Shown here piece after piece: positions 17,281 to 60,786 of a stretch of DNA of 64,000 nucleotides. This stretch comes from Candidatus Omnitrophota bacterium. GTDB taxonomy: Bacteria; Omnitrophota; Gorgyraeia; Aquiviventales; Aquiviventaceae. Position numbers and translations under genes: made by a program. How positions within the stretch are numbered: the first letter of the stretch is position 1; every line of letters starts with the position of its first letter. The stretch covers positions 11-64,010 of the forward strand of contig JAUYPJ010000022.1 in assembly GCA_030697665.1 (NCBI GenBank). Reading direction: 5' to 3'. The notes under the pieces are model-generated. The model worked only from the letters and a program-made list of their open reading frames with translations. It ran no database searches and had not been told where the DNA came from.

Positions 17281-17921
17281 AATCCGATCAACCCGCGGAA
17301 CTGCTCAATCGTCTGGATGCGCAAAAACGGGTTGTGCTGCTTTTCGTCTCCCAGCGTCGAGGTCGGGGTCGGCGCGTAATTGTGCCCCGGATACAGGACG
17401 GTGGTGTCGTCGAGCGCTTTGAGCGTGTGCGTCAAGCTGTGGAAGAGCGCGGTGGGGTCGCCGCCGGGCAAATCGGAGCGGCCGCAGGCGCGGATGAAGA
17501 GCGTATCCCCCGAGAGCAGCCGCCCATCCACCAGCAGACACTGCGAGCCTGGGGTGTGGCCCGGCGTATGGATGAGCGTGATGGGGACCTGGCCCACGTG
17601 GATGACCTCGCCGCTGTCGATGGGCTTGAGGTTAGAGGGATCGACGTCGAGCGAGGCCGCCTCGTCCCGATGGACATAGACCGGCAGATCCGCCGCCTGC
17701 AAGAGTGTCCCCAGCCCCATGACGTGGTCGAAATGGGCGTGCGTGACGAACACGTGCGTCAGGCGGTAGCCGTCCTGCTGGGCGGTCTTGAGAATCGTCG
17801 GCACTTCCCAGCCGGGGTCCACCACGGCCGCCTCGCGCGTGACCGGATCACCCACCAGATAGATGAAATTCTGCATCGGCCCCAGCTCGAGCTGCTTCAG
17901 GTAGATCGATCGCCCCGCCAT
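17277..17921 (-). CDS. MBL-fold metallo-hydrolase (glyoxalase II-like)
   Basis: HxHxDH motif (THAHFDH) and downstream HTPGHTPGS. Confidence 0.85.
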   Translation of the reverse strand: MAGRSIYLKQLELGPMQNFIYLVGDPVTREAAVVDPGWEVPTILKTAQQDGYRLTHVFVTHAHFDHVMGLGTLLQAADLPVYVHRDEAASLDVDPSNLKPIDSGEVIHVGQVPITLIHTPGHTPGSQCLLVDGRLLSGDTLFIRACGRSDLPGGDPTALFHSLTHTLKALDDTTVLYPGHNYAPTPTSTLGDEKQHNPFLRIQTIEQFRGLIGL

Positions 17922-17987
17922 GACCCTGCCCTCCCTTCACCTCATGCCATCATAATATCCCACGCCTGTCAAGGCATGGGATTTTAT

Positions 17988-17996
17988 TGCTACAAT
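17988..17996 (+). promoter_or_regulatory. Extended -10 element (TGCTACAAT) 7 nt upstream of the rlmI ATG; possible leaderless mRNA
   Basis: TGnTACAAT ends at 17996 and the ATG is at 18003. There is no SD in between and no convincing -35. Confidence 0.35.
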
Positions 17997-18002
17997 AGCG
18001 CC

Positions 18003-19193
18003 ATGGCCTATCCGCAAGTGCGCGTTGCCCCCTCCGCCGCGAAGCGCATCCGCCATCATGACTGTTGGGTCTTCCGGGACGAGTTGCTGCCCCCCGCGCC
18101 CGCCGCGGGCAACGGCGAGCTCGTGGAGCTCATCGACCCCCACGGCACGGTGTTGGGCGCCGCCTTCTACAGCGTCCACTCGCACATCGCCGCGAGGGTG
18201 GTGACGACCCGCTCGGATCAGCCGATCGACCGGGGGTTCTTCGCCGAACGCCTCCAGGCCTCGCTGGCTCGCCGCCGCCTCCTGACCGGGACGAACGCCA
18301 GGCGGCTGGTCTTCAGCGAAGCGGACGGGCTGCCGGGATTGATCGTCGATCAATACGCAGACGTCCTCGTCCTGCAGTGCCGCACGGCCGGGATGGAGCG
18401 GTGGAAGTCCCTGATCGTGGATCTCCTCACGGAGGCCGTCCACCCGAAGGGCATCCTGGAGCGCAGCGATCAGGCGTTCCGCGACGAAGAAGGGCTACCT
18501 CCCATCACGCAGCGGCTCATGGGGACCGTGCCGGAGCGGATCCTGATCGAAGAGGACGGCCTGCGGTTCTGGGTGGATCCCTACCGGGGACACAAAACCG
18601 GCTTCTACCTGGATCAGCGCCAGACGCGGCGTTGGATCCGGGCGCGCATCCAGCCCGGCCAGCGGGTGGCGGATGTGTGCGCGTACACCGGGGCGTTCGG
18701 GATCGGGGCGGCGAGCCGCGGGGCCCACGTCCTGTGCATCGAGCGGGAGGAGCCGTGGATCGCCTTGGCCAAAGAGAACGCGGCGCTGAACGGCCTTGAG
18801 TCTCGGATGGAGTTCATTGCAGGCGATGCGGCGTACTGGCTGGAGGCGGCGGCGCAGGGTCGGCAGCGCATGGACTGGGTGCTCCTCGATCCGCCGAGCC
18901 TGGCGAAGGGCAAGGCCGAGGTGCCGAAAGGCCGGCAGGTCCTGCACCATCTCCTCCGGCACGCGTTCGGGGCCCTGGCCCCTGGCGGCATGCTCGCCGT
19001 GAGCGTGTGCACGTACCACCTGCTGGGCGTCGCGGAGGAGATCATCCGGATTGCCGCGGCCGACCACGCGATCCGCCTGCGGGTGCTCGGCCTGTCGCTT
19101 CAGGCCGACGATCACCCGTGGATCCTGCAGATGCCGATGACCCGCTACCTCATGAGTTGGCTGGTGCAGTGCGACGGACGACCAGCGGCTTGA
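18003..19193 (+). CDS. rlmI: Class I SAM-dependent 23S rRNA (cytosine-C5) methyltransferase, RlmI-like
   Basis: In-frame ATG at 18003; the long ORF 17334..19193 is antisense to the MBL gene upstream of this point. It has a PUA-like N-terminus and the SAM motif VADVCAYTGAFG. Confidence 0.85.
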   Translation: MAYPQVRVAPSAAKRIRHHDCWVFRDELLPPAPAAGNGELVELIDPHGTVLGAAFYSVHSHIAARVVTTRSDQPIDRGFFAERLQASLARRRLLTGTNARRLVFSEADGLPGLIVDQYADVLVLQCRTAGMERWKSLIVDLLTEAVHPKGILERSDQAFRDEEGLPPITQRLMGTVPERILIEEDGLRFWVDPYRGHKTGFYLDQRQTRRWIRARIQPGQRVADVCAYTGAFGIGAASRGAHVLCIEREEPWIALAKENAALNGLESRMEFIAGDAAYWLEAAAQGRQRMDWVLLDPPSLAKGKAEVPKGRQVLHHLLRHAFGALAPGGMLAVSVCTYHLLGVAEEIIRIAAADHAIRLRVLGLSLQADDHPWILQMPMTRYLMSWLVQCDGRPAA

Positions 19194-24431: not shown

Positions 24432-24520
24432 CCGTCCACCGTCGGCCGTCCACAGCTAACTCGTATTGGGCGAGTTCTGGTTACCGTTACCGTAGACAAT
24501 GGACTGTGGACCGTGGACGG
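24432..24520. repeat. Short-unit tandem inverted repeat (7-nt units CCGTCCA / TGGACGG)
   Basis: Left arm CCGTCCACCGTCGGCCGTCCACAG (24432..24455). Right arm GGACTGTGGACCGTGGACGG (24501..24520). TTACCG TTACCG lies in between. The element spans the cmk stop and the plsC start. Confidence 0.8.
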
Positions 24521-25329
24521 CTATTGATGTGCCTGAGCATGACCCCAACCACCTGGGAGGCGGTCAGATGCGAGGTATCGATCACGATGGCACCCGGCGG
24601 TGTGATCAGGGGACCGATGCGGCGGCTGCGGTCGAGGCCGTCCCGGAAGTGAAGCTGCTCCCGGACCTGGACCAAGGGGGGGCACGTGCCGTAGAGCGCC
24701 TTCAGCTCCCGCTGCCGGCGCCTGGCGCGAATCGCCGGCGTGGCATCCAGGAAAAACTTGCAGGCGGCATCCGGAAAGACCACGGAGCCGGTGTCTCTGC
24801 CCTCAACGACCATCCCATGGCGATTCGCGAGCGCCCGCTGACGCTCCACCATGGCCTCACGGACTTCCGGGTGCTGCGAGAGTTGCGCCGCGGCCTCGGA
24901 GATCTCTTCCGTGCGAATCTGCCGCGTGATGTCGAGCCCGCCGAGGCTGACGCGCGGCGAGCCCGCGGGGGCGCAGCGCAGGCGCAGCGGCAACCGGCGC
25001 GCCAGCGCCGCCAGCCGCTGGACGTCCGTCACCGGGTTGAGCCGCTCCCGATGGTCCCACCCCCTAGCGCTGCCCGAAGGGCCTGCGCCTGCGGCGCAGA
25101 TTCGCCTCCGGCGGATGCGCCAGGGGGTGGGATGGAGAGCCGCATAGGCGAGGGCGCGGTAGGTCGCCCCGGTGTCGAGGTAGGCGATCCCAAGACGCCG
25201 GGCCAGCCGTTGCGCCGCCGTGCTCTTGCCGACGCCGGCCGGGCCGTCGATGGTGATCACCAGTGACTGGGTGACTGGGTGACTGGGTGACTGGGTCGAA
25301 GAACGTGAGCGCTCAGTCGGGGAGGGCAT
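24487..25329 (-). CDS. cmk: Cytidylate kinase carrying a 26-aa in-frame insertion
   Basis: P-loop DGPAGVGKST. An alternative GTG start at 25260 (VITIDGPAG) would leave the 8-mer repeat outside the CDS. The insertion HPTPWRIRRRRICAAGAGPSGSARGW is encoded by a palindromic element. Confidence 0.9.
   Translation of the reverse strand: MPSPTERSRSSTQSPSHPVTQSLVITIDGPAGVGKSTAAQRLARRLGIAYLDTGATYRALAYAALHPTPWRIRRRRICAAGAGPSGSARGWDHRERLNPVTDVQRLAALARRLPLRLRCAPAGSPRVSLGGLDITRQIRTEEISEAAAQLSQHPEVREAMVERQRALANRHGMVVEGRDTGSVVFPDAACKFFLDATPAIRARRRQRELKALYGTCPPLVQVREQLHFRDGLDRSRRIGPLITPPGAIVIDTSHLTASQVVGVMLRHINSRPRSTVHCLR
25055..25132. repeat. CCCACC-terminated palindromic element, copy inside the cmk coding sequence (78 bp, in frame)
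   Basis: Termini are TCCCACCCCCTAGCGC and GCGCCAGGGGGTGGGA, complementary at 15 of 16 positions. There is an internal stem CTGCGCC-TGC-GGCGCAG. 78 nt equals 26 codons. Confidence 0.7.
25263..25296. repeat. Tandem 8-mer array GTGACTGG x4 (single arm)
   Basis: Read directly from the sequence. It lies between the tyrA stop (25313) and the cmk P-loop region. Confidence 0.85.
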
Positions 25330-26160: not shown

Positions 26161-27426
26161 TCAGATCAACAGCCACGGCAGCGGAACAGCCACGATGCGA
26201 TCTGTGACCAAAAAGGGCTCGCGCGTCCCGCAGGCCACGATGCCAAACGGCGCGCGCGGCTTGAGATCGCTCAACAACGTCTCCAGCCCTTTGCATTCGC
26301 TCCGGGTGGGTCGTGAGGACCATTTGATTTCGATCGGCAACAGGCGCGCTCCGCGCTCCACCAACAGATCCACCTCGGCCCCTGCCAGCGTTCTCCAGAA
26401 CCACAGTTGGATGCTCGGATCGAAGAGCTCCGTCAGCGTCTTCATCTCGGCGATCGCGAAATTCTCCAACCACGCGCCGCGGCGATCCGACGCCTCGAGC
26501 TGCTCCAATCCCCTGATGCCGGCCAACATCAACGCCAACCCCGTGTCCTCGGAGAAGATCTTTGGCGTTTTAGTCAACCGCTTACCGATATTCACATAGT
26601 ACGGCTCAAGACGAAACAGGTGACATCCCTGCTCCAACAACCCGAGATACCGGTCTACCGTATGATACGACACCCCCAACGCCTGGCCGAATGACGCCAG
26701 GTCTCGGAGTTGCGCCGCGCTCGCCGCGACGAGTCGCCAGACGCGACGGAACTCCTCACGGTGGCGAATCTCTCCGAAATCCGGCAGGTCTTTTTCTACG
26801 AACGCATCGACATAGGCTTCGAGCCATGCGAGGCGAAACGCTTCGCTGCGGCGCCGAGCCACCAGCTCCGGAAACCGTCCTTCGAGGAGATGCTGCGAGA
26901 GGTCTCGCGGGGAGAGGTGAACCCGGTCCGCCGTGGCATGGCACTGGTCAAGCGCCCGGCGCGCCGTCCGGGCCTTCAAACACTCCAGCAGGTGCGGGGC
27001 GTCGCCCACACGGCTCATGCGCTCGCGCAGCGAGAGGCCTCGGAGAAACAATCGGCTGGCACGACCGGCGAGACTTTCCGACACCCGCTTCAGCAGTAAA
27101 AAGTTGGCGGAGCCGGAGAGCAAGAAGCGCCCGGGTCGACGATGGCGATCCACCTGCTGCTTGATGGCATCGAACACCGCGGGGCTCTTCTGCGCTTCGT
27201 CAAGGAAGGCGGGGAGTCGCGCCCCCTCGATAAAGAGCTCTGGATCCTCGTTGGCGCGCTGCCGACTTCCGGAGTGATCGAAGGAGATGCGCTGCCCCAA
27301 GCGAAGCCGGTCGGAAAGCATGTCCACCAGGGTGGTTTTCCCCACCTGTCGCGCGCCCGAGACGAGCACCACCGGAAACTCCCGCCACAGGCGCAGCAGC
27401 CGCCCTTCCGCCTCGCGCTTGATCAT
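26161..27426 (-). CDS. AAA+ ATPase with a C-terminal DUF4143-like domain (COG1373-type)
   Basis: Walker A SGARQVGKTT. Walker B AFLDEAQ. The C-terminus (VDLLVERGARLLPIEIKWSS) is typical of DUF4143. Confidence 0.8.
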   Translation of the reverse strand: MIKREAEGRLLRLWREFPVVLVSGARQVGKTTLVDMLSDRLRLGQRISFDHSGSRQRANEDPELFIEGARLPAFLDEAQKSPAVFDAIKQQVDRHRRPGRFLLSGSANFLLLKRVSESLAGRASRLFLRGLSLRERMSRVGDAPHLLECLKARTARRALDQCHATADRVHLSPRDLSQHLLEGRFPELVARRRSEAFRLAWLEAYVDAFVEKDLPDFGEIRHREEFRRVWRLVAASAAQLRDLASFGQALGVSYHTVDRYLGLLEQGCHLFRLEPYYVNIGKRLTKTPKIFSEDTGLALMLAGIRGLEQLEASDRRGAWLENFAIAEMKTLTELFDPSIQLWFWRTLAGAEVDLLVERGARLLPIEIKWSSRPTRSECKGLETLLSDLKPRAPFGIVACGTREPFLVTDRIVAVPLPWLLI

Positions 27427-27560
27427 CCCACCACCTGTCGCTGGCTTCGCCCACGGCGAAGCCGCATCACGGGCATCGCGTGTCGAGCGGTCAAACCTGA
27501 TGTTCCTCTTGAGGTCGTGATACGTCCCGCCATCTGGCGGGACGCGACAGGTGGTGGGAT
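27425..27560. repeat. CCCACC-terminated palindromic element, 5'-UTR copy (136 bp)
   Basis: Termini ATCCCACCACCTGTCGC ... GCGACAGGTGGTGGGAT. The left end overlaps the ATG of the ATPase gene, and the right end is followed by CA (TGA on the minus strand). Confidence 0.8.
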
Positions 27561-27569
27561 CATACTTGT

Positions 27570-28518: not shown

Positions 28519-28540
28519 GGTTTAGAAGATCGGTTCCGTA

Positions 28541-28566
28541 CTATGGACTATGGACTACGGACTATA
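28541..28566. repeat. Tandem 7-mer array CTATGGA x3.5 (single arm)
   Basis: CTATGGACTATGGACTACGGACTATA. The aroF stop codon (TAG) lies inside the last unit. Confidence 0.85.
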
Positions 28567-29575
28567 AGGAACGTCCCACCACCTTCGCCACCTTCTTGAG
28601 TTCTTTCATCAGATGCGCGAAGCGCTCCGGCAAGAGTGACTGCGGCCCGTCGGAGAGCGCCGCCTCGGGGTTGGGGTGGACCTCGATCATCAACCCGTCC
28701 GCCCCGCCGGCCACGGCGGCTTTAGCCATCGGCTCGACGAGGTCCCAGTGGCCGGTCGCGTGGCTGGGATCGACCACCACCGGCAGATGCGAGAGCTTCT
28801 CGATGACCGGCACGGCCGCCAAGTCCAGCGTGAAGCGCGTCTGATCCTCGAAGGCCCGGATCCCGCGCTCGCACAGGATCACGTTGAAGTTGCCTTGGCT
28901 GACGATGTACTCCGCCGCCAGGAGAAACTCCGTGATCGTCGCCGACAAGCCCCGCTTGAGCAGTACCGCTTTGTGCGACTGGCCCGCTTCTTTCAACAAC
29001 TCGAAGTTCTGCATGTTGCGGGCGCCGATCTGGATGATGTCCGCGTATTTCTCGACGAGCTCGATCTCCCGCACGTCCATCAGCTCGGTGACGACTTTCA
29101 GGCCGGTCGCATCGCCCGCCTCCCGCAGGTACTTCAGACCCTCCTCCCCTAACCCCTGGAAGGAGTAAGGCGAGGTGCGCGGCTTGAACGCCCCGCCACG
29201 CAGGACTTGCGCGCCGGCCCGCTTGACCGCCTTGGCGGTGGCGAGGAGCATCTGCCGGTTCTCAACGGAGCAGGGCCCGGCCATCACCACCAGTTCCTTG
29301 CCGCCGATCTTCACGCCACCGATGCTGATCACGCTCGACTCGGGCTTGAACTCCCGCGAGACAAGCTTGTAGGGCTTGAGCACCGGGATCACCCTCTCGA
29401 CACCGGGGATGACCTCCAGCGGTTGAACCCGCAAGGCGTCTTCCGGGCCGATGACGCCGATGATGGTTCGCTCCGTCCCTTTGGAGACCATCGGCTTCAG
29501 GCCCAAGGCCTTGATCTTCTCCGCGAGATGGGCGATCTGCTGCTTGGTGGCGTTCGGCTTCAGCACGATAATCAT
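28562..29575 (-). CDS. aroF: 3-deoxy-7-phosphoheptulonate (DAHP) synthase, type I-beta, with an N-terminal regulatory domain
   Basis: 337 aa. The N-terminal ~70 aa form a ferredoxin-like/ACT-type domain ([14 protein letters not shown]...). A KDO8P/DAHP synthase I-beta core follows. Confidence 0.9.
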
Positions 29576-29603
29576 GCGTTATCCTCCTGTCATCGATGGG
29601 TTG

Positions 29604-29720
29604 GTGACTGGGTGACTGGGTGACTGAGTGACTGGGTCACGAACTGACAGAGGCATGGGACCTTTTGCATCTGCCCTTGCTGGTTCACTCAGTCACGCAG
29701 TCACACAGTCACTCAGTCAC
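29604..29720. repeat. Short-unit tandem inverted repeat (8-nt units GTGACTGG / CAGTCAC)
   Basis: Left arm GTGACTGG x4 (29604..29640), a 43-nt spacer, then right arm (T)TCACTCAGTCACGCAGTCACACAGTCACTCAGTCAC (29684..29720). The arms are complementary at about 7 of 8 positions per unit. Confidence 0.85.
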
Positions 29721-30810
29721 GAAGCGCGTGGGTGAGGCTGCGGATGAAGCGGCGGTTCTCGGCCATGGTGCCGATCGTCACGCGCAGGCAGCCCGAGAGC
29801 TTCCACGCGCTCATCTCGCGGACGATCACGCCGCGACGCAACAAGGCCTGCGCGACCTCCGGGGCCCGCGGACCCAACTCCAGCAGTAGGAAGTTCGTGA
29901 CGCTCGGCACGTACCGCACCTTGAGCGCATCCAACTGCGTGGTTAGGTAGCGGCGACCCTGCGCCATCGCCCGGCGCGTCCGCGTCAGAAACGCGCGATC
30001 CTCCATCGCCGCAACGGCGGCCGCCTGGGCGAGGCTGTTGACGTTGAACGGCTCGCGGACGGCGTTCATGGCGGCGATCAACGACGGCTGGGCGATCCCG
30101 TAGCCCACGCGCAGCCCGGCCAGCCCGTAGGCCTTGGAGAAGCTGCGGGTAACGATCAGCGGGTAGTCCTTGACGTAGGGCACCGTCCGCGGGTAATCGG
30201 GGGCCTCGACGAACTCGTGGTACGCCTCGTCCACCACGACGATCGCCTGAGGCGGCAGATCCCGCAGGAACGCCTTGAGCTCGCGCGCGGTGACGTAGGT
30301 GCCGGTCGGGTTATCCGGGTTGGCGATGTAGACGAGCTTCGTGTGGGGCGTCAGGGCGGCCTGCATGGCCGCCAGATCGTAGCGGTAGTTCCGCAGCGGC
30401 ACCGCGCTCACCGACGCGCCGCACGCCCTGGCCTGCAGCTCGTAGATCAGAAACGTTGGCGTCGCTACGACCACGTGCTCCCCGGGATCGACGAACGCCC
30501 GCAGCGCCAAGACGATCAGCTCGTCAGAGCCATTGCCAATGAGGAGCGACGCCGGCTCCACGCGCAGGGTTTTGGCCAGCGTCGCGCGCAGCTCGCGACA
30601 GGTCGCATCGGGATACCGATGCAGCGCCGTGGCGGCTGCGCGCAAGGCCGCCAGCGCTTTCGGCGAAGGCCCGAGCGCGTTCTCATTGGAGGCCAGCTTG
30701 ATGACCGAGTCGAGCTTGAACTGCCGCTTGACCTCTTCGATCGGCGTGCCGGGACGATACGTCTCAAGATGGCGCACCGCCGCGCGCGCCCGCGAGTCAA
30801 TGGCTGGCAT
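29713..30810 (-). CDS. hisC: Histidinol-phosphate/aromatic aminotransferase
   Basis: 365-aa class II aminotransferase (SFSKAYGLAGLRVGY with the PLP lysine). Confidence 0.9.
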   Translation of the reverse strand: MPAIDSRARAAVRHLETYRPGTPIEEVKRQFKLDSVIKLASNENALGPSPKALAALRAAATALHRYPDATCRELRATLAKTLRVEPASLLIGNGSDELIVLALRAFVDPGEHVVVATPTFLIYELQARACGASVSAVPLRNYRYDLAAMQAALTPHTKLVYIANPDNPTGTYVTARELKAFLRDLPPQAIVVVDEAYHEFVEAPDYPRTVPYVKDYPLIVTRSFSKAYGLAGLRVGYGIAQPSLIAAMNAVREPFNVNSLAQAAAVAAMEDRAFLTRTRRAMAQGRRYLTTQLDALKVRYVPSVTNFLLLELGPRAPEVAQALLRRGVIVREMSAWKLSGCLRVTIGTMAENRRFIRSLTHALRD

Positions 30811-38454: not shown

Positions 38455-40176
38455 CTACAGCGACGGGGCGTTGTCAAGCAGCTTGCGGACGGTCTCGACG
38501 AGCGCCGTCGGGGGGACTGTGAGCCGTTCCTTCGTCGAGCGCAACCCCACTTCGAGCAGTTGCTCGCGCTGCCAGACCTTGCCGATGACGACCTGCACCG
38601 GGATGCCGATGAGGTCCGCGTCCTTCAGCTTGCTGCCGGGGGACTGCTGGCGATCATCCCACAACACCTCCACCCCCGCAGCCCCCAGCGCCTCATGGAG
38701 CTCGGCCCCGAGGCGCGCATGGTCGGCCTGCTCGGATTCGAGGACGCTGATGACCACCTGAAAGGGCGCCAGCTCAACCGGCCAGACGATCCCATCGGCG
38801 TCGTGGTGCTGCTCGATGGCGGCCGCGATGATCCGGTTTACCCCGATGCCATAGCAGCCCATGACCATCGGCTTCACCGCTCCGGCGGCATCCTGCACCA
38901 GCGCCCCCATGGCCTGGCTGTACTTCGTCCCCAACCTGAAGACGTGGCCGACCTCGATCGCGTTGAGGAACGTCAGCGGACTGCGGCAGCTCGGGCAGGC
39001 ATCCTCCGGCGTCACCACGCGCAGATCCGCCACCACCTCGGGCTGGAAGTCGCGGCCGGCATTGACGTTGAGGCAGTGGCTATCGGCCCGGTTCGCGCCG
39101 GTTACGCCGTTGACCACCCCCATGACCGCGTGGTCGGCCAGGAGGCGGATGCCGCGCAGGCCCAGCGGACCGACAAATCCCATCGGGGCCCCGGTGAGCC
39201 GCTCGATGGTGGACGCGCTCGACAGCCTCAGGGAGGCCGAACCGACCACGCGGGCCAGCTTCGCCTCGTTGACCTCGTGATCGCCTCGCACCAGCACCGC
39301 CACGTGGTCGTTGCCGACGTCGTAGAGGAGCGTCTTGATCAGCTTCGTCGCCGGCACGTTGAGAAACCGGCTGACCTCTTCCACCGTATGCTTCCCCGGC
39401 GTCTCCACCTCTTCCACGGTGCGTGATCGTTCGGCGGTGGACGGTGGACGGTGGACGGTGGGCTCGCAACGGGCCGCCTCGCGGTTGGCCGCATAGGCGC
39501 AGCGGGTGCACCGGACGATCCGGTCCTCACCGTAGTCGGAAGGCGCCATGAATTCATGGGACACGTCCCCGCCCATCGCCCCAGGATCGGCCTCGCACGG
39601 GATGACCGTCAGCCCGCAGCGGTCGAACACCCGCCGGTAGGCCTCGTACATCGCCTGGTAACTCCGCTCAAGCCCCGCCGGGTCCACGTCAAAGCTGTAG
39701 GCATCCTTCATCAGAAACTCCTTGGACCGGATCACCCCGAAGCGCGGCCTGGGCTCGTCGCGGAACTTGGTCTGGATCTGATAGACGGTCAGCGGCAACT
39801 GCTTGTGGGAGCGGATCTCCTTCACGAGGTCGGTGACCACCTCCTCATGCGTGGGTCCCAGGACCAGCTCTTTGCCGGTGCGGTCCTTGAACCGGATCAG
39901 CACCTGGCCCAGCACCGCATCCCGGCCCGTCGTCTTCCACAGCTCGAGGGGATGGAGGGTGGGGAGGAGGATCTCTTGGGCGCCGGCGCGGCGCATCTCC
40001 TCACGAAGAATCGCGATGGCGCGCTGGAGCGCGCGCAGCCCCAGCGGGAGGTAGGAGTAGGCGCCGGCGCCCAGGCGCCGAATGAGCCCGGCGCGGAGCA
40101 TCAGCTTGTGGCTGACGGCCTCAGCGTCTTTGGGCTCTTCGCGGAGCGTCGGGAGGAAATAGTGCGACCACCGCAT
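38455..40176 (-). CDS. proS: Proline--tRNA ligase (bacterial type with editing domain)
   Basis: 573 aa with class II motifs. It contains an in-frame 7-mer repeat tract at 39436..39461. Confidence 0.95.
   Translation of the reverse strand: MRWSHYFLPTLREEPKDAEAVSHKLMLRAGLIRRLGAGAYSYLPLGLRALQRAIAILREEMRRAGAQEILLPTLHPLELWKTTGRDAVLGQVLIRFKDRTGKELVLGPTHEEVVTDLVKEIRSHKQLPLTVYQIQTKFRDEPRPRFGVIRSKEFLMKDAYSFDVDPAGLERSYQAMYEAYRRVFDRCGLTVIPCEADPGAMGGDVSHEFMAPSDYGEDRIVRCTRCAYAANREAARCEPTVHRPPSTAERSRTVEEVETPGKHTVEEVSRFLNVPATKLIKTLLYDVGNDHVAVLVRGDHEVNEAKLARVVGSASLRLSSASTIERLTGAPMGFVGPLGLRGIRLLADHAVMGVVNGVTGANRADSHCLNVNAGRDFQPEVVADLRVVTPEDACPSCRSPLTFLNAIEVGHVFRLGTKYSQAMGALVQDAAGAVKPMVMGCYGIGVNRIIAAAIEQHHDADGIVWPVELAPFQVVISVLESEQADHARLGAELHEALGAAGVEVLWDDRQQSPGSKLKDADLIGIPVQVVIGKVWQREQLLEVGLRSTKERLTVPPTALVETVRKLLDNAPSL
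39436..39461. repeat. Tandem 7-mer GGTGGAC x3.5 inside the proS coding sequence
   Basis: GGTGGACGGTGGACGGTGGACGGTGG. On the coding strand it encodes PTVHRPPST. Three 7-nt units make 21 nt, so the reading frame is kept. Confidence 0.85.
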
Positions 40177-43253: not shown

Positions 43254-44363
<1,110 letters not shown>

Positions 44364-52465: not shown

Positions 52466-52472
52466 CGTTCTT

Positions 52473-52618
52473 AGTCCATAGTCCACAGTCCATAGTCCAT
52501 AGAATCCAGAAAGCAGAAGGCGGTAGGCAGAAGGCAGTGAACAGATCGCGACACGATGCTGCCGACTACGTTCTGCATGCTGCCTTCTTTGCACTACGGA
52601 CTATGGACTATGGACTCT
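52473..52618. repeat. Compound short-unit tandem inverted repeat (GTCCATA x4 + CAGAAGG-type units / complements)
   Basis: The left half is AGTCCATAGTCCACAGTCCATAGTCCATAG followed by CAGAAAGCAGAAGGCGGTAGGCAGAAGGCAG. The right half is CTGCC...TTCTGCATGCTGCCTTCTTTG followed by CTACGGACTATGGACTATGGACTCT. The right end encodes the aminotransferase C-terminus (ESIVHSP then TAG). Confidence 0.85.
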
Positions 52619-53742
52619 AACATAGCGCGGGCAGCCTGAACCCCTGTTCCAGCAGCGACCTCGTGCCCTAATGCCACGAGCGCTCCTTCGAGGGCGGCCA
52701 GCCCCGCCAGGATGTCGCCGGGACCGATATGGCCCATATGGGCGATCCGCACCACCTTGCCCGCCATCTCGCCTTGTCCGCCTGCGATCATCACGTGCGA
52801 TCGATCGTACATCAGCTTGGCCAACGACTTGCCGTCGATCCCCTCCGGCACGCGAATCGCCGTCACGCCGTTCGACGGACGCTGCGCAAAAAGGCGAAGC
52901 CCCATCGCCTCGACGCCGGAGCGCGTCGCCTGCGCCATGAGCCCGCAGCGCTGGAGCACCTTCGGCACGCCCTCCTGGAGGATGAGCGTCAGCGCCTCGT
53001 CGAGCGCCACCACCAGCGACACGGCGGAGGTAAACGGCGTGTCGTCATCGGCCAGGGCCTTGCGGTACCCTCGCAGGTCCGTGTAGAAGCGAGGCGTCTT
53101 CGCCTCGTTCACGAGCGCCCACGCCCGCTCGCTGAGGCTGAGAAACGCCAACCCCGGCGGGAGCATCAACCCTTTCTGCGAACCGGTCACGAGCACGTCC
53201 ACCCCCCAGGCATCGGTCTGGCACTCATCCGCGAGCAGCCCGCTGATCGCATCCACGACCAACACGGCCCGGCTGGCGCGCGTCACGGCGGCCAGGGCCT
53301 GGATGTCGGGCACGCCGCCGGTGGAGGTCTCGCACAGCGTGGCGAACATGGCCTTCGCCTTCGGATGCGCCCGGAGGATGGAGGCCGCGCGCTCGGGATC
53401 CACCGCCTCGCCGTAGGCGACCGGCACCGGCGCCGCGCGGATCCCGTAGGCGGCGCACACCTCCTGCCAGCGCTCCCCGAACTTCCCGCCGAGCACGACG
53501 ATCGCCTCATCACCCGGCGAGAGGAGGTTGACCACCGAGGCTTCCATCGCGCCGGTCCCGGAGCTCGTCAGGCAGACGACGGGTTGCGCGGTCTGCATCA
53601 CCGCCTGCATCCGCTGGAGCACGCGGCGGAACAGGCTGCGGTACTGGCTGGTGCGGTGGTGGATGATGGGCCGACCGAGCGCCTCGCGCACCTGCGGCGG
53701 CAAGGGGGTCGGACCCGGTGTGAGAAGGATGTCCCCGCTCAT
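52594..53742 (-). CDS. Class V aminotransferase (serine-pyruvate/alanine-glyoxylate or phosphoserine aminotransferase type)
   Basis: PGPTPLP N-terminus and TGSQKGLMLPPG (PLP lysine). It is adjacent to serA. Confidence 0.85.
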   Translation of the reverse strand: MSGDILLTPGPTPLPPQVREALGRPIIHHRTSQYRSLFRRVLQRMQAVMQTAQPVVCLTSSGTGAMEASVVNLLSPGDEAIVVLGGKFGERWQEVCAAYGIRAAPVPVAYGEAVDPERAASILRAHPKAKAMFATLCETSTGGVPDIQALAAVTRASRAVLVVDAISGLLADECQTDAWGVDVLVTGSQKGLMLPPGLAFLSLSERAWALVNEAKTPRFYTDLRGYRKALADDDTPFTSAVSLVVALDEALTLILQEGVPKVLQRCGLMAQATRSGVEAMGLRLFAQRPSNGVTAIRVPEGIDGKSLAKLMYDRSHVMIAGGQGEMAGKVVRIAHMGHIGPGDILAGLAALEGALVALGHEVAAGTGVQAARAMLESIVHSP

Positions 53743-53852
53743 CCCACCACCTGCCTCGGCCAGCCCAGGGCTGGCCGCGCACTCGCGGTGGCTCCGACGA
53801 TCCGGCGTGGCGCGAGTGCGCCAGCCGAAGGCTGAGAGGCAGGTGGTGGGAT
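53741..53852. repeat. CCCACC-terminated palindromic element (112 bp) filling the gap from the clpP stop to the aminotransferase start
   Basis: ATCCCACCACCTGCCTC ... GAGGCAGGTGGTGGGAT. It differs at 3 of 112 positions from 59893..60004 by manual alignment. Its ends overlap the TGA of clpP and the ATG of the next gene. Confidence 0.9.
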
Positions 53853-54472
53853 CACTTCTTCACCACCTTGGCCTTGCTGTAGAGCACTTCGTCGACGATC
53901 CCGTACTCCTTCGCCTCCTCCGCCGACATGAAGTAGTCGCGGTCGGTGTCCTTCTGGATCTTCTCCAGGGATTGGCTGGTGTGCTTGACGAGCAGCTCGT
54001 TGATCTTCTCGCGCAGCCGCAGGATCTCCCGCGCCTGGATCGAGATGTCCGTGGCCGCCCCCTCCGCGCCCCCCCACGGCTGATGGATCATGATGCGCGC
54101 GGCGGGTAGCGCAAATCGCTTGCCTTTGGTCCCGGCGCACAGGAGCAACGCCCCCATGCTCGCCGCCTGGCCGACGCAGTAGGTCGCCACGGGGGGCTTG
54201 ACGAACTGGATCGTGTCGTAGACCGCCAGCCCCGCCGTCACGGACCCGCCGGGGGTATTGACGTAGACGCTGATCTCTCGATCCGGATCCTCATTCTGGA
54301 GGAAGAGGAGCTGCGCGATGATCAGGTTGGAGACCATGTCATCGATGGGGGTGCCCACGAAGATGATGCGATCCTTGAGCAGACGAGAGTAGATGTCGTA
54401 GGCGCGCTCCCCGCGCGGCGACTGCTCCACCACCATCGGCACCAGCACCTGTCCCTGCTCGCTCATGTTCAC
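53852..54472 (-). CDS. clpP: ATP-dependent Clp protease proteolytic subunit
   Basis: GQAASMGA (active-site Ser) and IMIHQP (His). Confidence 0.95.
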
Positions 54473-56404: not shown

Positions 56405-58321
56405 TCAGGGATGGGTGGCGCTCGCAAGCTCGGTGGCGTGCGGCGTGAGCGTTCCCACGGCATCGGGCGCCGCCGCGGCGGGCTGCAGGGGCTTCGAGGC
56501 GGTGGGAACGGCACTGATCCCGTGGAAGGCGCCCGGGAGACCCGGGCCGCCCCCGGACGGAAAGAGCAGCAACCTGGGCTTGCCGATCAGCGTGACCTTG
56601 CCGGGCGTCGGCTCATACACCGCGCGCTCGCCGGTGGCCCGATCGTGGCCGTGATGGACCCGGACCCGCCCGATCGCCTCGGCGTAGCGGATCGTGTGCC
56701 GCGCCGAATCGAGATACGCGATAAGCACATCCGAGAACAGCTCACCCTGCGGGTCCGTGACATGCACGTTGCGCTCAAACGTCGCCACGCTGTGCTCATA
56801 GTCGAACGACAACGGACCGTCGCACGTGATCGTCACATGCGCCGATCCCTCCGCCTGCGGGTCCTGGTCGCCCGGGTTGAGCACGAGCTCAACATCCTCC
56901 ATGAGCTTCGCCTGTTTGAGCTGGGTCAAGGCGCTGGCCCCTCGACCGCGCAGCAGCATGTGATCGGTCTCGATCCGCACCGGCGTCTCCGTGGCCACCT
57001 GGTTCTGGTCGGGGATCCAGTGCAGCACCGGGGCCGCCAGCCACCACCCATCATTGGTGTGGATGGTCACCTCGTGCTCCATCCGGACGTGACGGCTGGT
57101 CTGATCCATCTCGGCGACCCTCGCGGTCAGATACGCCACGCGGGCCAGATCGTAGCCGACGGCATCGGGCCAATGGATGGTCACGAGGTTGCCATCCACG
57201 CTGGCCTCCCGCCCCGTCATCTCCCATCGCTTGGAGCCGTCCAGCTCATACCCGGTCAAGGTGAACGCGCTCATCTGTTGGGTGGGCTCTGACGCAGAGG
57301 CCGCGGGCCGCGCGGGCCGCGCACAGCCGATGAGCGAGGTGACGAGCAACCACCCGCTCATCATGAAGGCCGCCCGCGAGGGGTCAGGCTGGACGGTGGG
57401 CTGCGTCGAGACGTCCCCGCAGGTCGCCTGCCGCGACCCCGGCTGGGTTTTCCAGCGACGGTGCATCCAGACCCAGTGATCGGGATAGCGTCGCACGTAC
57501 GACTCGACGACGGCGCTCCAGGATGCGGTGAGTTCGGTCATCGCCTCCAACCGGTTCGGCGCCTGAGCCGCCGCCACGGGAGGCTCAATGACGAGACGGA
57601 AGCGGCGGCCTTCCCGGATGATGAAACAGGGGAGCATCGGCGCCCCGCTCAGGAGCGAGAGGGCGGCCGGCCCGAGCGGGGTGTAGGCCGGGCGGCCAAA
57701 GAACGGCACGAACAACCCGTCAAGACTGTCCACGTCCTGATCGGGCACGATCCCGAGGAGGTGATTGGCCCGCAGGAGCCTCACCGCGTCCTTCATGGCG
57801 CCGCGGGCGAGCGTCGTCACCCCTTGGCTGCCGCGCAGCTCCATCAAGAATGCGTCGTATTCGGGGTAGCGCAGGGGGCGCGCCACGACGGCCCCGTCAA
57901 ATCCCCGACTGCGCAGGTAGAGCGGGATCAGCTCCCAATTGCCGAAGTGGGCCCCGACCAGAATCGCCCCGCGCCCGCGCGCCAGCGCCTGGCGCAGATG
58001 GACAAGCCCCTCGCACGTGATGAGCTGGTGGAGCCGCCGGGTCGAGCAGGCCGGGAGCGCCATCCATTCCATGACGGTCTGTCCCAGGTTGACAAAGACC
58101 CGCAGCCCAAGGCGCCTGCGCTGTGCGGGGCTCAGCGTCTCCCCGAAGGCCTGGTGAAGATGCTCCCCGGTCAGTCGTCGCTGACTCCCCAGGAGCCCAT
58201 AGGCCAGCACGCCAAGGCCCCGGCCGAGCGCGCGCGCAACCCCCAGCGGCAGCACCCGCCCGACTCCTCGCAACCCCTGGAAGCCCAGGTACATGAGACG
58301 ACGGCGGATGGGATGCTTCAT
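56405..58321 (-). CDS. Single ORF fusing an LpxL/HtrB-type lipid A acyltransferase (aa 1-~300) to an LptC/LptA (OstA)-like lipoprotein module (aa 320-638)
   Basis: The N-terminal half ends with the typical [16 protein letters not shown]. In-frame [14 protein letters not shown] (lipobox L-I-G-C) begins at 57364. The C-terminal half has LptC-like and OstA_N-like beta-jellyroll patterns. lptB follows 5 nt downstream. Confidence 0.7.
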
Positions 58322-58470
58322 CCCCCCACCTGCGCCTCACGGCGGCCCGTAGTTTCAACCTCCGTAGCCGCCGTGACGAATGCAACGGCCAGACGCACCA
58401 TCCAAACAGTCTCCAACAGCAGACGCATTCGAGCCCCGCCTTTTGGCGGGGCTGGCGTAGGTGGGGGGAT
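58320..58470. repeat. CCCACC-terminated palindromic element, 5'-UTR copy (151 bp)
   Basis: ATCCCCCCACCTGCGCC ... GGCGTAGGTGGGGGGAT. The left end overlaps the ATG of the lpxL-fusion gene. It contains internal hairpins, including GAGCCCCGCC-TTTT-GGCGGGGCT. Confidence 0.8.
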
Positions 58471-58489
58471 CATCACGACACAAACTTGT

Positions 58490-58760: not shown

Positions 58761-59894
58761 TTAGAAGTATTCGGTCAGGAGGGTCTTCGTGCGGTGGATG
58801 AGTCGATTCAGCGCGTGCGGCGAAGGCGGCGGCGTGCTGCGCGCGGTGCCTGTGGCCTGCTCCAGCAGTCCCAGCGCCGCGCTCAGGCCGAGCTGGCGCG
58901 AGAGATCGCTCAGCGCGCTGGTCCGTGGACTGCGACACAGCGTCACGGGCAGATGGGTCCGCCGTTCGATCCACTCGGCCAATCCGTCGATCAAGGCCCC
59001 GCGCCCGGTCAAGAAGGCGGCATCCGGTTGAGGCTGGTTCGTGAGGAGCCCTTCGACGGCTGCCGGGATCGAGGCCCACCGGCGTTCGATGACCTCACGG
59101 ACCGGCGCCCGCCTGCAGGACGTCCCTTCCAAACTCCACGCCGTCGCCTGGTCCATCGTCACCCGAAGCGTCGTGGCAAGCTCCGTCGCCAGCGTCAGCC
59201 CGCCCCAGGGCAGGATGGCCGCCGCGCACCAGGTGCCGTCGACGAACAATCCCACGCCGGTCGAGCGGCCACCGACGTCGATGAGGAGCGCGCGGGCTCG
59301 ACAGTGCGCCTCCTCCGCCATGCTGGAGAAGACAGCGGGCAACGTGGAGTTCAACTGGGCGATCTCAAGGCCCGCTCCCTCAACCGCCTGGACCACGGCG
59401 CGGCGCAGCGCCACCGGCATCGTCACGATGTGAAAGGCGCCGCGAAGACGCGTCGCCGGAAGACCCTGGGGGTCGCGGATCCCTTCAAACCCGTTGCCCG
59501 AGCAGCCGAGGCATTCCACCACCAAGGGCTCTCGATCAAGCCCAACACCCTGGTCGAGCGCCCGCCGCCGCAGCCGATCCACGTCCTGCGCGCGAATCGA
59601 CACCGGCTCATCGGCCAACGGGAGAGTCGCCTGGACGATCTCGCTGGTCAAGGCTGGATGGTCGAAGGCCACCAGCGCGCGTTGGACGTGGGCGCTGACC
59701 GCCGTCGCCTCAAGCGCCTGCTCAATCGTCCGGCTCACCATGAGCGGGTCTGCCGACCACAGCTCCGAGAGCGCCGCGTAGGGAATGAGGCTGCTGCCCA
59801 TGAGCGTGAAGCCGGGGGCCTGCTCGTGCGGCAGGCCGATGGCGCAGGCGACCTTGGTGGATCCGAGATCGAGGGCCACGAGCGGCTGGATCAT
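58761..59894 (-). CDS. ftsA: Cell division protein FtsA (divergent)
   Basis: The ATG at 59894 gives MIQPLVALDLGSTKVACAIG. Actin-like ATPase fold and a C-terminal amphipathic helix (LNRLIHRTKTLLTEYF). Confidence 0.85.
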   Translation of the reverse strand: MIQPLVALDLGSTKVACAIGLPHEQAPGFTLMGSSLIPYAALSELWSADPLMVSRTIEQALEATAVSAHVQRALVAFDHPALTSEIVQATLPLADEPVSIRAQDVDRLRRRALDQGVGLDREPLVVECLGCSGNGFEGIRDPQGLPATRLRGAFHIVTMPVALRRAVVQAVEGAGLEIAQLNSTLPAVFSSMAEEAHCRARALLIDVGGRSTGVGLFVDGTWCAAAILPWGGLTLATELATTLRVTMDQATAWSLEGTSCRRAPVREVIERRWASIPAAVEGLLTNQPQPDAAFLTGRGALIDGLAEWIERRTHLPVTLCRSPRTSALSDLSRQLGLSAALGLLEQATGTARSTPPPSPHALNRLIHRTKTLLTEYF

Positions 59895-60004
59895 CCCACC
59901 ACCTGCCTCGGCCAGCCCACGGCTGGCCGCGCACTCGCGGTGGCTCCGACGATCCGGCATGGCGCGAGTGCGCCAGCCGAAGGCTGAGAGGTAGGTGGTG
60001 GGAT
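59893..60004. repeat. CCCACC-terminated palindromic element (112 bp) filling the gap from the ftsQ stop to the ftsA start
   Basis: ATCCCACCACCTGCCTC ... GAGGTAGGTGGTGGGAT, a near-identical copy of 53741..53852. Its ends overlap the TGA of ftsQ and the ATG of ftsA. Confidence 0.9.
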
Positions 60005-60786
60005 CATGAACCGATGACGGGCTCCTGAAACCTGAGGTCGATGTACTGCACGGCGAGCGACTGCCGGTGGATGATCTTCAACACCGCCTGGAGCCGATCC
60101 AGGTGAGCGGCCAGATCAGCCTCCGCCCCGCACCGCACCTCGACGTCGTCGAGGAGAAACCGAATCTGTTGCGGATCGGCGACGTCGAGCTCCGTGACGC
60201 GCCGCGCGATCGACGTCGGCGCGCGCTGCAGAGCCTCCAGGACGCGCAGACCGAGCTGCAACCGCTCATTGGTGTTGTCCGCCCCGAGGCGCAACGCCCC
60301 GGCGGAGGGCTGGAATCCCACCAGCCGGACCAAGCCGCTCGCCGGCTCGCGGCTCCCCCAGGGGAGGATGAACCCCTCACGATCCACCGGAAACCACTGT
60401 TGTTTCAACCAAACCTGGGCCGCCGGCTGGCGTGGCACGGCGTCGATCTGGAGCGTATCGGGCAGTTGCCGAACGACGCGGACTTCCTTCAGCCACGGCT
60501 GCTGGCGTCTCAGCTCTTCCGCGACACCGACAAGGTCCACCGCCCACAGATTCTTGCCGATGAGCGGCTCACGCAGCTCGAAGGAAGTCTCCGGAGGCCA
60601 CTGCACGGTGTGGATGCGAAAGGCCTCGGTCTGTTGCGCGTAGGTGGCCACCGCCCACAGCGCCGCCGTCAGACCCACCGCCAGGAGGAACGGGTGCGGG
60701 TGATGCAGGAGCCAGCGGCCGAGCGCCTTCACCCGCTCGACGAGCAGCGGCGCGAGGCCTCTCACGCGACGTCGCCGTCTGACCAT
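60004..60786 (-). CDS. ftsQ: Cell division protein FtsQ
   Basis: The ATG at 60786 overlaps the ddl stop (TGATG). TM helix plus POTRA/FtsQ domain, at the expected dcw position. Confidence 0.85.
   Translation of the reverse strand: MVRRRRRVRGLAPLLVERVKALGRWLLHHPHPFLLAVGLTAALWAVATYAQQTEAFRIHTVQWPPETSFELREPLIGKNLWAVDLVGVAEELRRQQPWLKEVRVVRQLPDTLQIDAVPRQPAAQVWLKQQWFPVDREGFILPWGSREPASGLVRLVGFQPSAGALRLGADNTNERLQLGLRVLEALQRAPTSIARRVTELDVADPQQIRFLLDDVEVRCGAEADLAAHLDRLQAVLKIIHRQSLAVQYIDLRFQEPVIGS

Follow-up and report, generated by a model that had tools for sequence, protein, structure and literature searches.

The window analysed here, a stretch of 64,000 nucleotides from contig JAUYPJ010000022.1 of an uncultured Candidatus Omnitrophota bacterium from groundwater, carries a palindromic segment in frame within its cytidylate kinase gene, cmk. 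Taken as a whole, the evidence is best explained by a non-autonomous mobile element resembling transposable elements of the miniature inverted-repeat type (MITEs), with survival set by selection, and we consider this very probable. The element has terminal inverted repeats (TIRs), a 3-bp target duplication, empty and filled alleles, many further copies, and a survival that depends on reading frame. The usual home of the family is the stop/start junction of adjacent genes, and copies inside genes form a minority class. This broader behaviour of the family is a more interesting result than the cmk copy alone.

The core of the cmk element (TCCCACC...GGTGGGA, 78 bp, no strand assigned) occupies window positions 25055..25132 and has the form TCCCACCCCCTAGCGC-(46 nt)-GCGCCAGGGGGTGGGA. 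Its 16-nt arms (25055-25070 and 25117-25132) match at 15 of 16 positions (94 % complementary) on either side of the 46-nt spacer and pair as a closing stem of ~16 bp, within which lie three abutting hairpins: GCCC-GAA-GGGC, CTGCGCC-TGC-GGCGCAG and ATTCGCC-TCC-GGCGGAT. The fold energy of the cmk-sense strand was -65 kcal/mol, as against -45.3 ± 3.4 kcal/mol in 200 dinucleotide shuffles, none of which equalled it (z = -5.7). A palindrome had been reported at this place in cmk by the first-pass annotation, and its sequence proved to be as described.

The host open reading frame (ORF) is on the minus strand (24487..25329) and matches Pfam Cytidylate_kin (PF02224) with E = 7.6e-61. The cmk gene itself spans 24487..25260 on the minus strand and encodes 257 aa from a GTG start at 25260, as in the public gene call (P0001); its identity comes from PF02224, from orthologues and from a structural model. 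The element lies antisense to cmk at a TGG target, which is duplicated on the plus strand at 25052..25054 on the left (CCA in the sense of cmk) and at 25133..25135 on the right. The left duplication was defined against the empty allele of the relative L001 and against contigs from runs X2 and X4 that skip 81 bp, and the right one by comparing filled with empty alleles. The earlier figures of 78 bp and 26 codons fall one codon short of the insertion. Because 3 bp (TGG) are duplicated beside the 78-bp core, the insertion amounts to 81 bp, or 27 codons (HPTPWRIRRRRICAAGAGPSGSARGWD), relative to the empty allele.

Filled and empty forms of the gene occur in close relatives. L001 (~95-97 % nucleotide identity; encodes P0003) has an empty cmk allele that reads ...GCGGCTCT CCAT CGGG..., whereas the window and L002 have filled alleles that read ...GCGGCTCT CCA-TCCCACCCCC...GGGGGTGGGA-CCA TCGGG..., an excess of 81 bp over L001. 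Among 19 aligned Cmk proteins, the segment is present in the window protein and in P0002 (from L002) only. It is missing from 16 orthologues at 66-74 % identity and from P0003, which is near-identical beyond indels and runs YAAL|HRARLNPVTDV without it. The first-pass annotation had described the added peptide as atypical and without counterpart in canonical Cmk; its composition is odd (RIRRRRICAAGAG), and the orthologues and the near-identical relative agree with the second point. Within the insert, the window and L002 differ by a single synonymous change (CGA vs CGG).

Assemblies made independently of one another (runs X1 and X2, and JGI 3300022563) contain the filled allele, so that it is not an assembly artefact, the outcome against which the first annotation had cautioned. 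In the source-like groundwater run X1 it was found with zero differences. The hot-spring run X2 contains both alleles, in the form of one filled contig and one contig that skips exactly 81 bp, and the 81-bp-skipping allele was also found in the groundwater run X4 and in JGI 3300009444. What is seen in cmk is thus a presence/absence polymorphism of natural origin, neither an artefact nor an old lineage-specific loop. That the 27 residues are an old loop of Cmk, palindromic by chance, or a product of assembly is a suggestion we regard as already refuted, given the empty allele at ~95-97 % identity, the orthologues that lack the segment, the independent assemblies that contain it, and the recurrence of the same termini and fold at unrelated loci.

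A second family copy is present inside cmk of L001 and L002 (98-99 bp; L002 2730-2827, L001 from 1442), at a site that corresponds to about 24817-24834 of the window, which is without it. Beside the left end of this copy, cmk has lost 18 bp (codons ANRHGM); on balance the gene is longer by 84 bp and stays in frame. A contig of run X2 breaks where this second copy sits. The ratio of non-synonymous to synonymous substitution (dN/dS) in cmk was also considered for the window, L001 and L002; minus alignment artefacts, the few clean differences (~7 non-synonymous and 10-11 synonymous) no more than hint at purifying selection.

In the protein, the insert forms residues 43-69 (HPTPW...ARGWD), shortly after the DTGATYR helix and 8 residues beyond the CMP-binding Arg of that motif. 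The match to E. coli CMK is split at this place: query residues 1-43 correspond to E. coli 7-49 and query residues 81-245 to E. coli 58-220, with 37 query residues standing against 8. Every invariant Cmk residue and motif in the 19-sequence alignment is retained in the insert-bearing protein. An AlphaFold2 model built from the same alignment (mean predicted local distance difference test, pLDDT, of 73.8) places the insert between helix 30-42, which bears the CMP-binding motif, and helix 80-88. Residues 48-69 have pLDDT < 50, and the rest of the model resembles solved CMP kinases with template-modelling (TM) scores of 0.78-0.83, normalised to the target. Mapped onto structure, as the first-pass annotation had suggested, the insert is modelled with low confidence as a loop linking two helices, in a CMP-kinase fold that is normal in other respects. 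Probably it is a disordered surface loop that adds 27 residues after helix 2 of the nucleoside monophosphate-binding region. The modelled protein fits a tolerated surface loop, a fit that does not in itself prove activity. A predicted peptide across the insert junction is, for example, ALAYAALHPTPWR.

The odd composition of the insert and its position so soon after the CMP-binding Arg would also fit if the insertion had inactivated cmk, leaving a pseudogene in the making, or if the insert were removed before or after translation. We consider this distinctly unlikely. The frame is intact and the invariant Cmk motifs are all kept; the insert is common to two lineages that differ elsewhere, with only a synonymous change within it; and cmk of the relatives tolerates one further in-frame copy. 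An intein would have to be far longer than this segment. In-frame copies are also present in five other proteins, including Ddl, an enzyme of the cell wall, IspD, an enzyme of isoprenoid synthesis, and MreC, a protein of cell shape. We know of no RNA-level excision of such a hairpin from a bacterial mRNA.

The reading of the cmk segment as a mobile element was extended by a census of its relatives. One genome per species was scanned with the pattern TCCCMCCMCCT-N56-116-AGGKGGKGGGA, and a second, independent scan of metagenome contigs gave 138 new elements; all counts from both scans are among the matches listed. The 135 paired elements of the genome set include those of the window, L001 and L002. 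Identical 3-bp flanks were found at 98 of these 135 elements and at 75 of the 138 metagenome elements, giving at least 173 validated copies in Omnitrophota-type metagenome-assembled genomes (MAGs) and metagenomes. The termini of the family are 12 nt long (consensus TCCCACCACCTG / CAGGTGGTGGGA) and form perfect inverted repeats; the first 11 nt are fixed by the search pattern, and position 12 is G in 78/98 copies. Core sizes range overall from 78 to 168 bp, and the only ORF inside is a peptide that bridges the element from end to end. The interiors of the 98 genome-set copies fall into 65 sequence clusters and those of all 173 copies into 110, the termini alone being common. The mobility first suspected for the cmk element is borne out by its precise empty site with a 3-bp duplication, by four more copies in the window and by more than 100 in related genomes.

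The genome-scan matches listed come mostly from Candidatus Omnitrophota MAGs from groundwater, with a GC content of 46-68 %, together with some labelled 'Planctomycetales' and a few labelled Elusimicrobia, and the spread of the family is claimed for MAGs with these three labels only. A wider spread was rejected, as the matches labelled Thermoanaerobaculia, Nitrospirales, Verrucomicrobia, Streptomyces and others were without matching 3-bp flanks. The matches in Thermoanaerobaculia MAGs (L011, L014, L039, L061, L070, L080, L084, L095, L106) belong to another, longer C/G-rich palindrome (GCCCCTCACCCCCTnGCCCCCTCTCCCACCCCCTCCC...mirror) that has no 3-bp duplication at the TCCCACC boundary. Carriage by phage was likewise rejected; it was represented by one doubtful IMG/VR match with poly-C/G arms.

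The target triplet is usually TGA/TCA and less often TAA, TGG or CGA, with TTG also among the co-varying flanks. The 98 genome-set copies comprise 78 at TGA/TCA, 10 at TAA/TTA and 4 at TGG/CCA, and TGA accounts for 61/75 copies in the metagenome set. At the TGA copies of the genome set, the base before the left TGA yields a start codon in 77 of 78 cases (A 69, G 5, T 3). Core length is 2 mod 3 in 67/78 TGA copies of the genome set and in 48/61 of the metagenome set, and counted per sequence cluster in 43/52 clusters; in the genome set these 2-mod-3 lengths run from 80 to 161 in 3-bp steps. The bridging frame xTG-ATC-CCA-CCA-CCT...-GTG-GTG-GGA-TGA is open in 64/67 of these copies in the genome set and 48/48 in the metagenome set (112/115 together). 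With the element flipped, it is open in 32/67 and 28/48, respectively, and the other non-trivial frame is open in 24/67 of the genome-set copies. The predicted bridging peptides all begin MIPPP... and end Q-V-V/G-G. At 39 of the 67 genome-set copies, an ORF of at least 60 codons ends at the left TGA and another starts at the right A+TG. Related copies share orientation in 31 cases and are opposed in 12, and since both orientations occur among related copies, orientation is apparently filtered after insertion.

In the minority of copies that lie inside genes, the rule of length is different. All four TGG/CCA copies of the genome set are 78 or 81 bp long (0 mod 3) and lie inside long ORFs. Translation through the 0-mod-3 copies, combined with a Pfam scan, placed in-frame copies in D-Ala-D-Ala ligase (Ddl, L086), IspD (L036), MreC (L093), a type I phosphodiesterase (L063) and a radical-SAM protein (L083). 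The peptide added depends on the frame and takes the form IPPP...GGGI, (S)HP...GVGW or ARGWD, or DPTT...RWWD. The first-pass annotation had compared the cmk insertion to the situation of the Rickettsia palindromic elements (RPEs), and with Cmk and these five proteins that comparison holds family-wide.

Of the end motif ATCCCMCCMCCT, 1.5 occurrences would be expected in the window; there are 11, and they form five inverted pairs. Besides the 78-bp copy inside cmk on the minus strand, four further copies were found, all on the minus strand and at gene boundaries. A 134-bp copy with a TGA duplication (27426..27559) stands at the ATGA start of a gene for an AAA_14/DUF4143 ATPase; its bridging mini-ORF (27563..27423, minus strand) has 47 codons including the stop. 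This copy provides a second empty site, where L002 reads ...ACAGGG ATGA TAAAACGC... and the window ...ACAAGT ATGA-core-ATGA TCAAGCGC.... A 110-bp copy (53742..53851) exactly fills the space from the clpP stop TGA (53854..53852) to the ATG (53742..53740) of a class-V aminotransferase gene and has the bridging mini-ORF 53855..53739 (GTG...TGA); the G before its left TGA indicates a duplication of 3 bp, not 4 bp. A 149-bp copy with the termini TCCCCCCACCT / AGGTGGGGGGA (58321..58469) abuts the ATG (58321..58319) of gene 56405..58321, whose product has 638 aa, and has the bridging mini-ORF 58473..58318. A second 110-bp copy (59894..60003; mini-ORF 60007..59891) lies between an ftsQ-like stop TGA (60006..60004) and an ftsA-like ATG (59894..59892). 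The two 110-bp copies are nearly identical, and the remaining window copies are alike at their ends only.

In the six-frame ORF list, the ftsA-like ORF (58761..59960, minus strand) begins at an ATG within the 59894-60003 element. The true start is likely the ATG at 59894..59892 (MIQPLVALDLGSTK), 22 codons downstream of the start listed. A solo, exact half-site (AGGTGGTGGGA) at window positions 28574-28584 encodes the C-terminal ...KVVGRSL* of a DAHP synthase gene (28562..29575, minus strand), and may be the remnant of an element fused to the end of this gene, or a chance occurrence.

Two other repeats in the window were recorded. Short tandem arrays with 3-5 copies of 7-8-bp units (GTGACTGG, ACTATGG, TCACTGG, TAGTCCA and others) occur at gene boundaries, some as inverted pairs, at 25263-25296, 28540-28565, 29603-29637, 29685-29721, 39435-39461, 43254-43292, 52472-52502 and 52593-52616. 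In L001 and L002 the array just 5' of cmk has another unit instead, AAATCCA x4, and metagenome contig depth at this array is 249x vs ~9x nearby. By their appearance, the arrays make up another high-copy repeat system that is unrelated to the palindromic family. The inverted repeat ATCTCCTCCGGCACGC / GCGTCGCGGAGGAGAT (16 nt, 88 %) at 18949-19042, inside a 619-aa ORF (17334..19193), has no flanking duplication that could be seen, and could be due to chance or be another kind of in-gene palindrome.

The copies of the family have a fold in common. A closing stem (median 16 bp) with exactly three hairpins was predicted for 79/98 genome-set and 61/75 metagenome copies, compared to 126/490 shuffled interiors. 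The median number of unpaired junction nucleotides is 2, vs 8.5 in the shuffles, and the median z-score of the interiors is -3.7. The three hairpins of the cmk copy recur in another genome (L145 9757-9834), and when 13 members of the 78-84-bp subfamily to which the cmk copy belongs were aligned, pairing proved to be kept by compensatory changes on both sides in 13 of 25 consensus pairs. On the mRNA-sense strand, single mismatches in the stems are A.C in 40 cases and G.T in 19 (p about 0.009; junction copies L003-L234 plus the window). Structural selection on the sense RNA was rejected, as this bias is opposite to the one it would give; with A.C in excess of G.T, the hairpins give no impression of being optimised as sense RNA. 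It may be at the DNA level that the conserved fold is important, or templated mutation rather than selection may keep it. Rfam, at the gathering threshold, gave no match at any element, its only hit being a tRNA. Inverted 10-11-mers raised the possibility that adjacent cmk sequence had served as the source of the element's interior, which was rejected; matches of equal length occur in 10 % of control windows, and the same hairpins are found in L145.

A fold of one stem and three hairpins kept across unrelated sequences would also suit an element that moves as folded single-stranded DNA, by means of an HUH/Y1 enzyme (IS200/IS605-like, or like the REP-associated tyrosine transposases, RAYTs) or a site-specific recombinase that recognises the four-way junction. 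The flanking TGA would then belong to the element, as its point of cleavage or crossover, and would not be a duplication left by a staggered cut. The direction of the mismatch bias, which does not favour sense RNA, and the fact that no transposase with matching termini was seen in the loci both speak for such a route. The flanks, however, speak for a staggered cut: the left and right triplets co-vary in the 173 cases (TGA, TAA, TGG, CGA, TTG), and both empty sites have exactly one triplet, as a staggered cut predicts. A carried site would need an end of the element that changes with every target, and there is no conserved GTAG or CGTC tag of the kind found in repetitive extragenic palindromes (REPs). 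We therefore hold this route to be quite unlikely.

The position and the frame of the junction copies invite another explanation, in which the hairpins are regulatory devices of the host (couplers, Shine-Dalgarno-sequestering switches or RNA-processing sites) kept for their function, the cmk copy being an accidental by-product. The 3' arm AGGTGGTGGG, which immediately precedes the ATG of the downstream gene, takes part in the closing stem, the bridging frame stays open, and the termini are invariant across MAGs of 46-68 % GC, all of which would fit such devices. Such devices fit less well with near-identical genomes that, with nothing else changed, have or lack the element in cmk and at the start of the ATPase gene, with copies that face either way relative to the gene or lie within coding regions unrelated to one another, or with a sense strand that is not the better-pairing one. 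As the general explanation we think it rather unlikely, while noting that function and mobility are not exclusive and that some copies may have been co-opted.

The preferred reading, a mobile element filtered by selection, can be put as a sequence of steps. An enzyme acting in trans would mobilise the element with a 3-bp staggered cut, recognising the termini, the folded junction or both, and the insertions observed would then be those chosen by selection. At an overlap or start codon of the form xTGA, the duplication would retain the upstream TGA stop, and the last A of the element together with the right TGA would restore the ATGA of the downstream gene. Only 2-mod-3 copies with an open frame would survive at such junctions, where ribosomes would start at xTG, read through the hairpin (MIPPP...QVVG) and stop on the downstream start codon. 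The closing stem would bury the Shine-Dalgarno-like AGGTGG and the ATG, and ribosomes that reach the TGA of the mini-ORF would have opened the stem and could reinitiate, such that the bridging mini-ORF would preserve translational coupling. Inside genes, only stop-free 0-mod-3 copies in tolerant loops would survive. The preference for xTGA is probably at least in part a result of selection and not of enzyme specificity, because no T follows TGA as a mirror image of the A that precedes it. The TNA type of 3-bp target is typical of some transposases of the IS5 family and of the Harbinger type, whose ends those of the element do not resemble. The logic of RNA unfolding and of termination-reinitiation has been reviewed (PMC12548453).

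Several observations weigh against this reading. The case for translation of the Cmk insert and of the mini-ORFs comes from frame statistics only, and a second, uninterrupted cmk may be present elsewhere in the genome. The excess of A.C over G.T mismatches on the mRNA-sense strand is not what a structure working in the transcript would lead one to expect. A search of ~840 kb of 8-kb loci gave no pair of termini 0.4-4 kb apart that could mark an autonomous element. When all ORFs of at least 150 aa in the loci were clustered, no recurrent transposase-like ORF appeared; the families that did recur were of the housekeeping kind, ABC ATPases and fts genes among them. To our knowledge, the termini are also unlike those of the insertion sequence (IS) families that make 3-bp duplications.

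Comparison with known classes of elements helps to place the family. In the summary of Ogata et al. (2000) given in PMC10969869, RPEs are short palindromic repeats of ~100-150 bp, present in many copies per genome and in frame in unrelated housekeeping genes. The Omnitrophota elements share with them a palindromic repeat that lies in frame in housekeeping genes, adds a peptide without destroying the fold, and has many copies. They differ in their host, which is not Rickettsia, in their termini, and in having a clear 3-bp duplication and conserved 12-nt TIRs. In-gene copies are also the minority, most copies standing at stop/start junctions with a bridging mini-ORF, and the structure is a four-way junction instead of a simple long hairpin. 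We treat the family as an analogue of the RPEs and not as a member, given its different host phylum and the lack of any Rfam match at the elements.

Mycobacterial interspersed repetitive units (MIRUs), as described in PMC12548453 from Supply et al. (1997), insert at start codons in operons and have an internal ORF coupled by a 4-nt overlap of the ATGA type; according to the same description, this coupling minimises the effect on expression. Likewise, in 112/115 junction copies the internal ORF is open and shares 4 nt (ATGA) with the start of the downstream gene. MIRUs consist of direct repeat units, often in tandem, and are not known to have TIRs or a palindromic structure. The Omnitrophota elements, in contrast, are single, bounded by TIRs and strongly hairpin-forming, and are found in frame inside genes as well.

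TIRs, a target duplication and small size are the definition of a MITE. Bacterial MITEs (Correia/NEMIS, ERIC, QMITE1/2, BOX) are shorter than 500 bp, have no transposase gene, carry TIRs and a target duplication, give stable stem-loop transcripts and occasionally have intragenic in-frame copies; they are typically AT-rich, derive from a recognisable IS and have an internal sequence common to the family (PMC10969869, PMC3184786). The Omnitrophota elements are MITE-like in their size (78-168 bp), TIRs, lack of a transposase of their own, a duplication shown by two empty sites, and dispersed copies of which some are near-identical. Unlike typical MITEs, they have only the 12-nt ends in common (110 interior clusters among 173 copies), their length is quantised by the reading frame, and no parent IS was seen in the ~840 kb of 8-kb loci.

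REPs and bacterial interspersed mosaic elements (BIMEs) are GC-rich extragenic palindromes that reach high copy numbers and depend for their mobility on an enzyme acting in trans, the single-copy RAYT (PMC3733652, PMC2817692). The family resembles them in its GC-rich palindromes, high copy number and absence of a conventional IS nearby. It differs in that REPs are single hairpins of 20-40 bp tagged with GTAG/CGTC, whereas the present elements are untagged, span 78-168 bp with several hairpins, and produce a 3-bp duplication. REPs are not known to make a target duplication.

The family combines traits of the RPE, MIRU and MITE types and adds to them the four-way-junction fold and the frame-quantised lengths. 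No description of it was found in the literature searched, the coverage of which was incomplete, nor any Omnitrophota paper on miniature inverted-repeat elements, and a 2024 review of MITEs leaves start and stop codons unmentioned. The family is apparently undescribed. With slightly less than even confidence, we tentatively propose that it represents an undescribed class of structured mobile elements widespread in Omnitrophota: a four-way-junction palindrome with 12-nt ends that would colonise stop/start overlaps, rebuild the ATG, make up for its polar effect through translation as a coupling mini-ORF and be moved by an enzyme encoded elsewhere, possibly a structure-specific one, with the copies in Cmk, Ddl, IspD and MreC being the same element.

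Descriptions of selfish DNA lying in frame within housekeeping genes have until now come mainly from Rickettsia, and cmk provides a second, independent and well-controlled case, from an uncultured phylum and with natural filled and empty alleles. That lengths are quantised, as 2 mod 3 for copies between genes and as 0 mod 3 for those inside them, is a clean natural experiment on how selection acts on insertions. For the calling of genes in MAGs, start-codon assignment beside such elements can be misled, as in the ftsA-like case, and the results bear on the number of small 'hypothetical' ORFs and unusual loops of metagenome-derived proteins that are really transposon scars. In gene-dense genomes such as these, mobile DNA appears to survive by preserving stop, start and translational coupling.

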